Below, one piece after another: positions 23,910-26,801 of a stretch of DNA of 64,000 nt (positions are counted from its first letter, which is position 1; each line of letters starts with the position of its first letter). Below the pieces are notes generated by a model. The model was not told the origin of the DNA. It ran no database searches and saw only the letters and a program-made list of their open reading frames with translations. The stretch covers positions 1-64,000 of the IMG/VR virus record IMGVR_UViG_3300049573_000219, one strand, 5' to 3'. The position numbers and the translations under genes are program-made. This stretch comes from a virus (taxonomy: Duplodnaviria; Caudoviricetes).

Positions 23910-23985
23910 AGGGATATAGCTCAGCTTGGCCAGAGCAACCGTCTCCAAAGCGGTGTTTGCGCAGGTTCGAATCCTGCTATCCCTG
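23910..23985 (+). tRNA. tRNA-Trp(CCA)
   Basis: AGGGATA/TATCCCT acceptor, CTCCAAA loop, GGTTCGAATCC. Confidence 0.9.
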
Positions 23986-24031
23986 CTGGACCCCGGGGTT
24001 ACAACCCCCCCGTCACCCTGGGGTCCTTTAC

Positions 24032-24108
24032 CGGAATGTAGCTCAGCTTGGTTTAGAGCGCTCCGTTCGGGACGGAGAGGCCCGCAGGTTCGAATCCTGT
24101 CATTCCGA
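24032..24108 (+). tRNA. tRNA-Pro(CGG)
   Basis: CGGAATG/CATTCCG, CTCCG-TTCGGGA-CGGAG. Confidence 0.92.
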
Positions 24109-24309
24109 CTGGACTCCGGGCGGCGTATCGGAAGTACCTCTTTCCCTTACGACGTCGTCCACTCCGTCCGGAGTCCTCAGTTCTCGCTGCCAGTTGTCCT
24201 TCTTTTCGGAAGGTCGACATCCCGCAGGGATGGCATCCTGCGAAGGGGAAACCTGTCCACCGATCGGTGCGAGAGGGTCGGTCAAAGTACCGGGCAGAGT
24301 TCCCCGCCC

Positions 24310-24382
24310 GCCTCCGTAACTCAGTCGGTAGAGTGCTTCCCTCGTAAGGAAGATGCCGCAGGTTCGATTCCTGTCGGGGGCT
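24310..24382 (+). tRNA. tRNA-Thr(CGT)
   Basis: GCCTCCG/CGGGGGC, CTTCC-CTCGTAA-GGAAG. Confidence 0.92.
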
Positions 24383-24536
24383 CGAAGGTGCGGTGCGGAC
24401 TCATAATCCGTAGCCGTATGCCGGTGGAAGGTGCGGGAGGACAGACCCGACTGGAAGCAAGGCAGACCCCTGGTGGAACGCTGTCCCGGGAAGCCAGGGG
24501 TTCCTGTGAAATCGGGACGAGAAAGAGGGTGCGATC

Positions 24537-24653
24537 GTGACCTGCAAGTGCAAGGCTCGGACGTACGAGGGGCACCTGAAGAAGGTGCAGCAGGACGGAT
24601 ACCCTACCCATGTCTACACAGGTCACTACTGGAGCCCCAAGGACGACAAGTAA
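24537..24653 (+). CDS. 38-aa microprotein inside the tRNA array
   Basis: GAAAGAGGG RBS, GTG...TAA, MTCKCKARTYEGHLKKVQQDGYPTHVYTGHYWSPKDDK. Confidence 0.45.
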   Translation: MTCKCKARTYEGHLKKVQQDGYPTHVYTGHYWSPKDDK

Positions 24654-24666
24654 AACTGAAGAACGC

Positions 24667-24739
24667 GCGCCCTTAGCTCAGTTGGCAGAGCAGGGGATTC
24701 TTAATCCTCGTGTCACTGGTTCAAGTCCAGTAGGGCGTA
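24667..24739 (+). tRNA. tRNA-Lys(CTT)
   Basis: GCGCCCT/AGGGCGT, GGGGA-TTCTTAA-TCCTC. Confidence 0.9.
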
Positions 24740-24749
24740 CGCAGAACAA

Positions 24750-24824
24750 CGGGATGTGGCCCAGTTCGGATGGGGCAACCGACTACGGATCGGAAGGACG
24801 GGGGTTCAAATCCCTCCATCCCGG
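24750..24824 (+). tRNA. tRNA-Arg(ACG)
   Basis: CGGGATG/CATCCCG, CCGA-CTACGGA-TCGG. Confidence 0.85.
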
Positions 24825-24850
24825 CTCGACAACTCAATAGCAAAAATCAT

Positions 24851-25330
24851 GCGCCTGTGGAGGAGTCTGGAGTCCTCGCCGGTCAAGTCAGAGAGAAGAA
24901 ATGAATCCAACAGAAAAGGGCGTTAGAACAGAAGGTATCATCCTTTCGGCCCTATTGAAGAAGGGCTACAGGGTACTCCTTCCGTTCGGTGGAGGTTCCC
25001 GTTATGATCTCGTTTACGAGGAAGATGGGAAGTTCATCAGGGTGCAGTGCAAAACTGCAACCTATGCAAACGGATGCGTAGTTTTTAATTCGAGATCCGT
25101 GAGCAGAGATGGGCAGAATCTTCACTACGCCGGAGATTGCGATGTCTTCGGTGTTTACTGCCCCGATCTGGACTCGACCTACCTTGTTCCCGTGGAGCTT
25201 GTAGCCAAGGGTAAGGGTAGTCTTCGAGTGGAAGAGCCCAGGGTAACGAGAACCTTGCAGGCTCTCTGGGCGAAGGACTTTGAACTGACGTAAGCGGAGA
25301 TTTTCGCGGGTTCAAATCCCGTCAGGACCG
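24851..25330 (+). tRNA. Interrupted/chimeric tRNA (Asp-like 3' half) split at the anticodon by an endonuclease ORF
   Basis: 5' half 24851-24891 (acceptor strand, D arm GAGG/CCTC); 3' half 25285-25330 (GCGGG-TTCAAAT-CCCGT T arm, CAGGACC-G). Confidence 0.7.
24901..25293 (+). CDS. PD-(D/E)XK endonuclease, group I intron-associated type (I-Ssp6803I-like)
   Basis: KG..TE....AL...GY.V..PFG...RYDLV.....FIRVQCKTA...Y...CDVFGVYCP..YLVP; low GC. Confidence 0.85.
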   Translation: MNPTEKGVRTEGIILSALLKKGYRVLLPFGGGSRYDLVYEEDGKFIRVQCKTATYANGCVVFNSRSVSRDGQNLHYAGDCDVFGVYCPDLDSTYLVPVELVAKGKGSLRVEEPRVTRTLQALWAKDFELT

Positions 25331-25477
25331 CTGGCTTCGGAGGCAGATCTCGCAGGGTTCGCGGCTCACGCCGCTACCTGGGAGGCAGAGAGTGAGGCAA
25401 AGCGAGTCCACGAGCCAACCTTCTCCGGGAGGCGACTGGAGGGCGGCCCCTGCCCAGCTATATCTCAAGGGGTGCAC

Positions 25478-25554
25478 GGCCCTGTAGCTCAGTTCGCGTA
25501 AGAGCGCTCGCCTGAAAAGCGAGAGGTTCGCCGGTTCGAATCCGGCCGGGGCCA
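25478..25554 (+). tRNA. tRNA-Phe(GAA)
   Basis: GGCCCTG/CGGGGCC, CTCGC-CTGAAAA-GCGAG. Confidence 0.92.
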
Positions 25555-25668
25555 CTGGCCGGACGGTAAGCTATCGACGCAGCCCCACTGTGGCGGGTGG
25601 GACATACGCGCGAAGATAGCCCATGCGTGGAAGCATTGCCGTCCGGTTGCCGACAATTTCATAGTCGA

Positions 25669-25740
25669 TCGCCCGTAGTTTAACTGGCAAAACTCCGGCC
25701 TCTGGAGTCGGCGTTCTTGGTTCAAATCCAGGCGGGCGAG
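25669..25740 (+). tRNA. tRNA-Gln(CTG)
   Basis: TCGCCCG/CGGGCGA, CCGGC-CTCTGGA-GTCGG. Confidence 0.9.
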
Positions 25741-25814
25741 CTGCGCCGGACCGGCACGTTGAGTGGTCCGTAACCAGTCGGTCGCATGCGACCGGTCCGG
25801 CGCGAACAAGTCAA

Positions 25815-25887
25815 TCCCTCGTAGCTCAGTTGGCAGAGCATTCGATTGTTAATCGACAGGTCACTGGTTCGAGTCCAGTCGGGGGAG
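25815..25887 (+). tRNA. tRNA-Asn(GTT)
   Basis: TCCCTCG/CGGGGGA, TCGA-TTGTTAA-TCGA. Confidence 0.9.
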
Positions 25888-25978
25888 CGTGTGCCGACGA
25901 CACCATGTCCTTCCGTGGTCTGAAAAACCCGGTCGGACTCACAGTCGGTGGTAAAGGGTCGTGGTGCGCAACACGGCC

Positions 25979-26074
25979 GCGCGTGCAAGCGAACCCGAGT
26001 CAGAGCCCGGCGAACAGGGCACTCGGGCGGAGCTGGGGAGACGTCCCGTGCGAGTTCGAGCCTCGCCACGCGCA
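25979..26074 (+). ncRNA. tRNA-like RNA lacking a canonical anticodon arm
   Basis: Perfect acceptor GCGCGTG/CACGCGC-A and T arm GCGAG-TTCGAGC-CTCGC; non-canonical middle. Confidence 0.6.
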
Positions 26075-26176
26075 CTCAGGAAGAAGCCCGTCGCAACGGA
26101 AGGGAATGGGCGATGAACAGCCTGACCGGATTCACCTAGGACCGCGAAATACGCGGCCCTAGGAGGATGATTTCCG

Positions 26177-26572
26177 ATGGGCAAGACCGCACACCACACG
26201 CCGGAGAAGTTCGACCGGCGAGAGTTCCCCGACGGCTACCGGATGTACTGGCGTGGCCGTCCGCTCGTTCCGGTGCGCGAACACACGGTGTACGACCTGG
26301 ACTTCAGCGCCTCTGAACTCCGGAAGGCGCAGCGGGAGGGCAGGCGTCCTCAGCCTCGGAAGATCCGGCGCACTGCCCGCTGGTGGACCTACACGGGGGC
26401 GTGGACTCCCAGCTCCAGCCGTACCTACTGGGCCGACAAGAACGAACGGTCGAACAGGCGGTACGTGAAGAGTGTGCTGAACGCAGGGCGCCGGACCAAG
26501 GGTGAACTCGAAAGGCGCCTGTACGAAAAGGCAGAGAAGACCCCTCGCCGGATGCTGTACGACATCTGGTGA
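26177..26572 (+). CDS. Arg-rich hypothetical protein
   Basis: AGGAGG RBS, 131 aa. Confidence 0.7.
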   Translation: MGKTAHHTPEKFDRREFPDGYRMYWRGRPLVPVREHTVYDLDFSASELRKAQREGRRPQPRKIRRTARWWTYTGAWTPSSSRTYWADKNERSNRRYVKSVLNAGRRTKGELERRLYEKAEKTPRRMLYDIW

Positions 26573-26584
26573 GGCAGCAGGGAT

Positions 26585-26657
26585 GCTCTCGTAGCTCAGG
26601 GGATAGAGCACTGGATTCCTAATCCGGGTGTCGCAGGTTCGAATCCTGCCGGGAGCA
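26585..26657 (+). tRNA. tRNA-Arg(CCT)
   Basis: GCTCTCG/CGGGAGC, CTGGA-TTCCTAA-TCCGG. Confidence 0.92.
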
Positions 26658-26801
26658 CGGCGGAGCCACCGCGTCACGCCGGGCGCGAATGGGTGCGAAG
26701 AGGCCAACTCCAGTGATCTGCGTGGCGGCTCTCCTGGTGAAAGATCTCGCACGGTCGAGGCTATACGGCCCCCGCGTTCTTGTATCGGAAGGGGAAGAGG
26801 A

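Follow-up and report, generated by a model that had tools for sequence, protein, structure and literature searches.

RNAs that mimic tRNA are known as a kind. The mascRNA/MEN-beta family (RF01684) and the 3′ tRNA-like structures of plant viruses are mimics recognized by RNase P, RNase Z, and the CCA-adding enzyme, and they serve RNA 3′-end formation or protein recruitment. The tRNA cluster of phage T4 encodes the small stable RNAs called species 1 and 2 (rnaC and rnaD), which are co-transcribed and processed with the tRNAs. In tmRNA, an acceptor stem and a T arm without an anticodon are joined to a pseudoknotted non-tRNA domain. YrlA (RF02553) is a non-decoding RNA whose T arm, D arm, and elbow are tRNA-like, and it occurs in actinobacteriophages that encode Ro60 as well as among tRNA genes. 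[quoted passage not shown] The window covers the opening 64 kb of an IMG/VR virus record that is 187,033 bp long and carries direct terminal repeats. Among cultured phages, the nearest relatives are five large phages of Streptomyces (Frankenweenie, Satis, Kradal, Quantum, and EhyElimayoE), which belong to the cluster named BM (PMC10652959), and the source phage is a cluster-BM-like Streptomyces jumbo phage from soil. The element is contained in an array of nine tRNAs called by ARAGORN or Rfam (23910-26658), all encoded on its own strand. It lies between tRNA-Asn (25815-25888), only 90 nt upstream, and an open reading frame for 131 amino acids (ORF131, 26177-26572). A scan of the array retrieved no promoter and no convincing terminator on the plus strand, and thus the array is likely to be a single transcript.

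Other parts of the array are altered. A low-GC gene for a PD-(D/E)XK endonuclease (PF11645, E 9e-33) at 24901-25293, inside the array, occupies the place of the tRNA-Asp(GTC) of the relatives, and neither the tRNA-Asp nor the tRNA-Met of the relatives was called in the source phage. In one relative (L006:1127-1210), tRNA-Asn is present only from the anticodon loop (CTGTTAA) onward and its 5′ half is replaced by unrelated sequence, suggesting that here, too, an insertion took place at the anticodon loop of a tRNA.

The sequence-only reading had described the element as a 7-bp acceptor stem with a discriminator A and a canonical T arm, between which an AGC/GCT stem encloses a nested hairpin and is followed by a GGGA-GACG-TCCC hairpin. 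The letters were verified, both the minimum-free-energy and the centroid structures from RNAfold were identical to this fold (-47.6 kcal/mol), and the acceptor stem and T arm were also found in the homologues. The parts of the tRNA-like body are as follows.

25979-25985, plus strand: 5′ strand of the acceptor stem (GCGCGTG), which pairs with 26067-26073.
25988-26034, plus strand: analogue of the D arm, a short stem (AGC 25988-25990, GCT 26032-26034) enclosing a long hairpin.
25994-26027, plus strand: long D-loop hairpin, with CCCGAGT (25994-26000) paired to ACTCGGG (26021-26027) and an inner stem of GCCC (26005-26008) and GGGC (26017-26020).
26029-26030, plus strand: GG, just 5′ of the 3′ strand of the D-like stem.
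26036-26047, plus strand: analogue of the anticodon arm, a 4-bp GGGA/TCCC stem with a GACG tetraloop (26040-26043).
26050-26066, plus strand: T arm, a 5-bp stem (GCGAG/CTCGC) with a 7-nt loop (TTCGAGC).
26067-26073, plus strand: 3′ strand of the acceptor stem (CACGCGC), followed by the discriminator A at 26074; the next bases are CTC.

The connectors (2 nt following the acceptor stem, a single nucleotide between helices two and three, and 2 nt before the T stem) match those of the tRNA cloverleaf, and thus the short stem corresponds to the D stem and the GACG-capped stem to the anticodon stem. The element further shares with canonical tRNA (RF00005) the 7-bp acceptor stem with its discriminator, the 5-bp T stem, a UUCGANN T loop with a pair of the G53-C61 type, and, in the main subtype, a D-type stem and GG in the D region; it also has the strand and the operon of real tRNAs. 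Canonical tRNA has a 5-bp anticodon stem and a 7-nt loop with U33, whereas the element has a stem of 4-5 bp closed by the GACG tetraloop. The canonical D arm has a stem of 3-4 bp and a loop of 8-11 nt with G18-G19, whereas the D loop of the element is interrupted by the hairpin of approximately 35 nt; its GG is placed where G18-G19 could reach the T loop.

Standard detection did not report the element. ARAGORN called nine tRNAs and no tmRNA in the window, and the element was not among these calls. No tRNA, tmRNA, Y RNA, or other plausible match was retrieved from Rfam at 25979-26074, either at the gathering score or at E<=10, and the threshold of the tRNA model (RF00005, gathering score of 29 bits) was not reached. 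The fold energy was modest in comparison with shuffled sequences (z = -2.33, 3 of 200 shuffles folding equally well). As the energy alone is unimpressive and both ARAGORN and Rfam are silent, the case rests on the comparison of homologues.

The element is present in all five GenBank BM relatives, where it falls in an unannotated gap of approximately 290 nt after tRNA-Asn, and further copies were found in IMG/VR, metagenome, and Logan contigs. The further copies were collected via the neighboring protein, by a leader pattern in viral contigs, and by a stricter leader pattern in metagenomes; two chance matches of the pattern GTCGGTGGTAAARG...TGCGCA in viral contigs (L012 and L015) were discarded. 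When the cloverleaf was specified by hand for 11 distinct homologues in a MAFFT-based alignment, 93% of the pair cells were paired, compared with 30-48% in slid controls (partners shifted by 1-3 columns), and 14 of the 32 pairs were changed on both sides. A covariance model built from this set retrieved 17 copies, 16 of them distinct, with 91% of the pair cells paired (33-49% in slid controls) and 23 of the 32 pairs changed on both sides; this larger alignment was fitted to the covariance model, and the MAFFT-based count from 11 sequences is the more independent of the two. In each genome the model found a single copy, with scores of 54-116 bits, and no real tRNA scored above 27 bits. In the 187-kb source genome, the single copy scored 99.5 bits and real tRNAs at most 24.5 bits.

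Each helix contributed to these counts. In the acceptor stem, 94.6% of the cells were paired and four of the seven pairs were changed on both sides, and G-U wobbles fix the RNA strand as plus. G1-C72, C4-G69, and A73 (the discriminator, in all homologues) were invariant, and C2-G71 and G5-C68 were nearly so. The CCA end is encoded neither in any copy of the element nor in the real tRNAs of the array. The D-like stem, which is AGC/GCT in the window and AGGG/CCCT in most relatives, covaries, its third pair being G-C, A-U, or C-G. The long hairpin within it (CAGA bulge on the 5′ side, apical loop G[NRAR]C in the main subtype) is variable in sequence between lineages, yet the hairpin is kept: 92.6% of the cells in this third helix were paired, seven of seven pairs were changed on both sides, and the apical loop is closed by an invariant G-C pair in the 14 sequences aligned there (14/14). 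The T arm was paired in 100% of the cells (three of five pairs changed on both sides), and the G-C pair that closes its loop, at the position of G53-C61, was invariant.

In the analogue of the anticodon arm, 92% of the cells were paired and all four pairs were changed on both sides. Across copies, this arm has a stem of 4-6 bp and always a 4-nt loop, which reads GACG in 16 of the 17 copies and GACA in one. The GACG cap sits on stems as diverse as GGGA/UCCC, GAGA/UCUC, UGGA/UCCA, and CGAG/CUCG, and no other single-stranded feature of the body is as conserved. As the pair closing the tetraloop covaries (A-U in eight sequences and G-C in eight), the loop is truly 4 nt long, and the earlier statement that there is no 7-nt anticodon loop was borne out.

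The GG of the D region was kept in 11 of the 11 sequences with a UUCNANN T loop, while AG was found in the five sequences with a UGCGAUA T loop. These five constitute a second subtype, like L007, with a D-like stem of approximately 2 bp and this non-canonical T loop. Given this subtype, the tRNA-like core is not uniformly kept. The change from GG to AG alongside that from UUCGAUC to UGCGAUA is consistent with a D-loop/T-loop elbow contact that has been kept, and as a single correlated event it is no proof.

On these comparisons, the element is a genuine single-copy phage gene for a selected, non-decoding, tRNA-shaped RNA. Neutral decay of a tRNA gene is excluded, because compensatory changes occur in every helix across lineages. 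The sequence-only reading had held that the RNA does not decode and that complete pairing argues against random decay. The first claim agrees with a conserved tRNA shape that is under purifying selection and has no anticodon, and the second with covariation in every helix.

The least credible of the explanations considered is that the element is nevertheless a tRNA gene, either a pseudogene in decay or a decoding tRNA that has an intron or an odd structure. The loss or interruption of other tRNAs in the array of the source phage (tRNA-Met and tRNA-Asp not called) would be in keeping with it, as would the resemblance of the acceptor and T arm to those of the neighboring tRNA-Arg, the best non-self match of the covariance model (24.5 bits). 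However, the compensatory changes extend across lineages down to approximately 73% identity, and the covarying pair at the tetraloop leaves no 7-nt loop for decoding. Removal of the D-loop hairpin as an intron still yields no anticodon loop, and the 'anticodon' that could be read at the tip of the long hairpin differs among close relatives (CGA, UAA, AAA, and UGA) and lacks U33.

The 90 nt upstream of the body (25889-25978) were better conserved than the body itself, and the element is the 3′ part of a conserved structured unit of approximately 185 nt (25889-26074). The parts of this 5′ leader are as follows.

25889-25903, plus strand: hairpin Ha, a 4-bp stem (GTGT/ACAC) with the loop GCCGACG at 25893-25899.
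25944-25949, plus strand: GTCGGT, the pseudoknot partner, which pairs with GCCGAC of the Ha loop (25893-25898).
25950-25957, plus strand: the conserved linker GGTAAAGG, 3′ of GTCGGT.
25957-25978, plus strand: hairpin P0, a 7-bp stem with an 8-nt loop, whose last base is position -1 of the body.

Among 13 homologues, 100% of the cells in the Ha stem were paired and three of its four pairs were changed on both sides, while the loop GCCGACG was near-invariant, with one base differing in L042 only. All six pairs of the pseudoknot form in 13 of the 13 sequences. The only variant is again L042, in which both partners are changed (C-G to G-C). The linker that follows is conserved (GGUAAAGG), and the 12-mer GTCGGTGGTAAA occurs once in the 187-kb genome. 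We considered whether the leader is a recurring module near Ro60-linked RNAs and rejected this idea, as the motif GCCGACG is frequent in the GC-rich genome (202 occurrences) and the whole leader profile matches its own locus only (nhmmer, 89 bits).

The P0 stem was likewise paired in 100% of the cells, with five of seven pairs changed on both sides. Its loop contains a palindromic hexamer, TGCGCA at 25965-25970, which is UGCGCA in 12 of the 13 sequences and CGUACG, likewise self-complementary, in L042; kissing-loop dimerization through this palindrome is a guess. In most sequences the P0 loop could also pair with the 3′ strand of the acceptor stem; this pairing was rejected, as it showed no covariation and is broken in L010 and displaced in L042. 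The end of P0 at position -1 may hinder cleavage by RNase P. Other tRNAs of the array, however, also have helices that end at -1 or -2, and thus P0 alone does not exclude cleavage.

The unit resembles tmRNA: both lack an anticodon, have an acceptor stem and a T arm, and join these to a pseudoknotted domain that is not tRNA-like. It differs in that tmRNA has a G3-U70 pair and a tag reading frame with a resume codon, whereas pair 3:70 of the element is G-C, A-U, or U-A and there is no tag frame. The pseudoknots of tmRNA are internal, whereas the non-tRNA domain of the element lies 5′ of the whole cloverleaf. Viral tRNA-like 3′ domains also have pseudoknots upstream of the tRNA-like part, but their acceptor arm is formed through a pseudoknot, while that of the element is a plain 7-bp stem. 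The mascRNA and viral structures, moreover, are eukaryotic nuclear transcripts or the ends of RNA-virus genomes, with unrelated sequence and no model match to the element. The rnaC and rnaD RNAs of T4 can be likened to the element by description only; host and phage lineage are unrelated.

We favor, as somewhat more probable than otherwise, the reading that the tRNA-like 3′ domain of the 185-nt unit is a tRNA mimic that matures as tRNAs do and acts as a protein-binding decoy or adaptor. The element would fold into an L-shaped tRNA body and would be excised from the operon transcript by the tRNA-end enzymes of the host (RNase P, 3′ trimming, and CCA addition). Such excision is suggested because the element keeps what those enzymes read and sits among tRNAs without an encoded CCA; the phage genome itself encodes no CCA-adding enzyme and no RtcB. 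Either RNase P would remove the 5′ domain, or the whole 185-nt RNA would be the active species. The matured RNA would be a stable mimic that binds a protein via its acceptor/elbow surface, the invariant GACG cap, and the extra hairpin, and it would serve as a decoy or adaptor and not as a substrate of translation. Candidate partners are a host enzyme or toxin acting on the acceptor ends or elbow of tRNA, or the Ro60 particle of the phage.

The reading as a mimic follows from what has been kept and what has been discarded. The features for tRNA-end enzymes and for binders of the elbow or acceptor are kept, whereas those for the ribosome, RelA, T-boxes, most synthetases, and anticodon nucleases are gone. 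Part of the earlier interpretation stands with it, namely the conserved non-decoding tRNA shape, whereas the decoy roles toward RelA and T-boxes that were proposed at the same time do not fare well. RelA senses deacylated tRNA that is bound to a codon in the A site, and the specifier of a T-box serves to read the anticodon. Decoy roles toward RelA, T-boxes, and anticodon nucleases are all unlikely, because each of these needs an anticodon. A stoichiometric decoy would also be a weak mechanism unless the RNA is abundant.

The intact acceptor end raises the question of aminoacylation. A non-ribosomal amino-acid carrier or a synthetase sink, charged by a synthetase that ignores the anticodon, would make use of the intact acceptor stem, A73, and T arm and of the invariance of G1-C72, C4-G69, and A73, and minihelices and viral tRNA-like structures can indeed be charged. 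The identity elements do not fit, however: there is no G3-U70 for AlaRS, no G-1 for HisRS, and no long variable arm of the SerRS or LeuRS/TyrRS shape, and pair 3:70 varies freely (G-C, A-U, and U-A). No tRNA-dependent transferase was noticed nearby, in an inspection that was not a systematic search. We regard a charged carrier as very improbable, though slightly less so than a pseudogene.

The source genome also encodes an RNA-handling island at approximately 173.4-178.0 kb on the minus strand (L029:9919-14513). This island includes a Ro60/TROVE homologue (an open reading frame of 554 amino acids, approximately 173.4-175.1 kb, minus strand), which is preceded by an RNA ligase (PF09414). A YrlA-like RNA adjoins Ro60 (L029:12483-12553; 33.8 bits, E 1.7e-4), below the gathering score of RF02553 (69 bits). 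A sister RNA at approximately 12679-12749 of L029 carries the 5′ sequence of the YrlA-like RNA; ARAGORN alone calls it, as a 'tRNA-Cys'. Alongside the island lies a second small tRNA cluster.

We also noted, on the minus strand of the same region (L029:14199-14284), a tRNA with the anticodon CUA that was labeled tRNA-Pyl by ARAGORN and is possibly an amber suppressor. Its anticodon loop has 17 nt where the Rfam model has five. The codon UAG is the constant end of the short open reading frame upstream of ORF131 that is described below.

The element could therefore be thought of as a Y-RNA-like partner of the phage Ro60, namely a second, non-permuted design of tRNA mimic that would work alongside the YrlA-like RNA and offer Ro60 its D-loop hairpin or its 5′ domain as a handle. 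The genome pairs Ro60 with an RNA ligase and a sub-threshold YrlA match nearby, and all five BM phages that bear the element encode Ro-like proteins. In L042/L043, YrlA-like RNAs, tRNAs, the element, ORF131, and TROVE are found in one 2-kb cluster on one strand, and YrlA matches of 37-49 bits were obtained in L041 and L042. In addition, the long hairpin of the window's group contains a CGAA motif (GGCGAAC), which occurs at other positions in L035 and L042, and such a motif has been reported for Ro60-binding Y RNAs (PMC4201824, PMC12135203). [quoted passage not shown] Only in the window's group does the apical loop of the D hairpin hold GGCGAACAG, which nearly matches this motif but has two N.

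Several observations nevertheless make a Ro60 partner distinctly unlikely. CGAA is a 4-mer that is also found in T loops, and the hairpins of L010, L033, Satis, and the L007 type lack it. At E<=10 over 25890-26200, the element was matched by neither the YrlA nor the Y RNA models of Rfam. YrlA is circularly permuted (T arm, capped acceptor analogue, and D arm) and ends in a basal Ro60-binding stem, and the topology of the element is the opposite: its order is that of a normal tRNA, the RNA ends at an open acceptor stem, and the anticodon stem is capped. Ro60 lies approximately 40 kb from the element in the source genome, Frankenweenie, and Satis, with Ro60 on the minus strand and the element on the plus strand (at 26 kb) of the source genome, and proximity within 4 kb was seen only in the relative L042/L043. 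The Ro60-encoding Streptomyces phage Alone3 has no copy of the element in its Ro60-adjacent tRNA cluster, and L041 has Ro60 and ORF131 with a real tRNA in the place of the element.

The sequence downstream of the element is conserved in its own right. ORF131 follows the element in 17 of the 17 loci that bear it. It has no Pfam or PHROG family, its AlphaFold model was mediocre (pLDDT 71), and Foldseek against the PDB retrieved nothing at E<=0.001. What separates the two is no mere spacer, as 3′ of the element lies an upstream open reading frame (uORF) for a leader peptide, MNSLTGFT* (26113-26139). In approximately 20 distinct loci, the uORF has 7-10 codons and ends in (T/S/A)-G-F-(T/F)-UAG, has its own purine-rich Shine-Dalgarno (SD) sequence, and shows synonymous changes in its codons for Gly and Thr. 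A near-invariant hairpin (26135-26163) contains the UAG of the uORF, and the 3′ strand of this hairpin overlaps the SD sequence of ORF131 (GGAGGA, 26162-26167), whose ATG is at 26177. The arrangement of uORF and hairpin probably provides translational coupling or leader-peptide control of ORF131.

This neighborhood gives rise to the main rival of the mimic reading, in which the element acts in cis on the processing or stability of the downstream mRNA (the uORF, the SD-sequestering hairpin at 26135-26163, and ORF131). The tRNA shape would recruit RNase P and a 3′ tRNA-end nuclease or would block 5′ exonucleases, and thereby set or protect the 5′ end of the mRNA. The constant position of ORF131 3′ of the element (17/17 loci) speaks for such a role, as does the exchange of the element for other tRNA-shaped RNAs in front of ORF131, with a real tRNA-Arg(ACG) in the same place in L041 and a different tRNA-like RNA in L009/L011. 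The conserved uORF with its own SD sequence implies that an mRNA does start just 3′ of the element. For such a role, however, an ordinary tRNA would suffice, and tRNA-Asn lies just 90 nt away on the 5′ side. A cis role would not account for the invariant GACG cap, the conserved D-loop hairpin, or the highly conserved 5′ pseudoknot domain, and in L039/L040 ORF131 and the uORF occur without any tRNA or mimic nearby. On balance, we consider a purely cis-acting role unlikely, with better prospects than a Ro60 partner. We also considered descent of the element from the tRNA-Arg(ACG) of L041, with GACG as a relic of ACG; no similarity was found in flanks or stems, and the idea was set aside as speculation.

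The reading of the element as a processed, protein-binding tRNA mimic is thus retained. A broader proposal is that the whole unit of approximately 185 nt represents a new class of phage non-coding RNA, either a pre-tRNA look-alike that would capture or redirect a host tRNA-end or elbow enzyme or a defense toxin, or a third, non-permuted design of Ro60 partner. We offer this proposal tentatively, as a possibility that falls well short of probable and stands a little above the cis-acting role. As to novelty, the searched literature contained no description of an anticodon-less phage tRNA mimic of this design, and the element has neither an Rfam family nor an annotation in its GenBank relatives; the design is new.

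In relatives, a second anticodon-less tRNA-like family was found at the following positions.

L009, 1274-1390: tRNA-like RNA of the second family.
L033, 12345-12480, minus strand: tRNA-like RNA of the second family.
L035, 262-400: tRNA-like RNA of the second family.
L047, 770-912: tRNA-like RNA of the second family.

This family has the shape of a class-II tRNA, and CCUAGG lies within its very long variable arm. In L033, L035, and L047, a GAAA tetraloop caps the anticodon arm. The L009 copy, which was the only one checked, was not called by ARAGORN. The family lies just upstream of the leader of the element in L033, L035, and L047, and it replaces the element in L009/L011.

The tRNA arrays of phages are usually read only as supplements for codon usage or against nucleases. 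The array described here holds a strongly selected RNA that keeps the body of a tRNA and has no decoding loop. Direct testing is feasible, since the cultured phages Satis, Kradal, and Frankenweenie and laboratory hosts exist. If the element is a decoy or adaptor, it would extend the short list of natural tRNA mimics (tmRNA, YrlA, mascRNA, and the viral structures) by a new design and would point to a host process or defense that recognizes the shape of tRNA and not its anticodon. If the broader proposal of a new RNA class is true, then together with the second anticodon-less family, it would mean that these jumbo phages field a set of 'blunted' tRNAs against their host.
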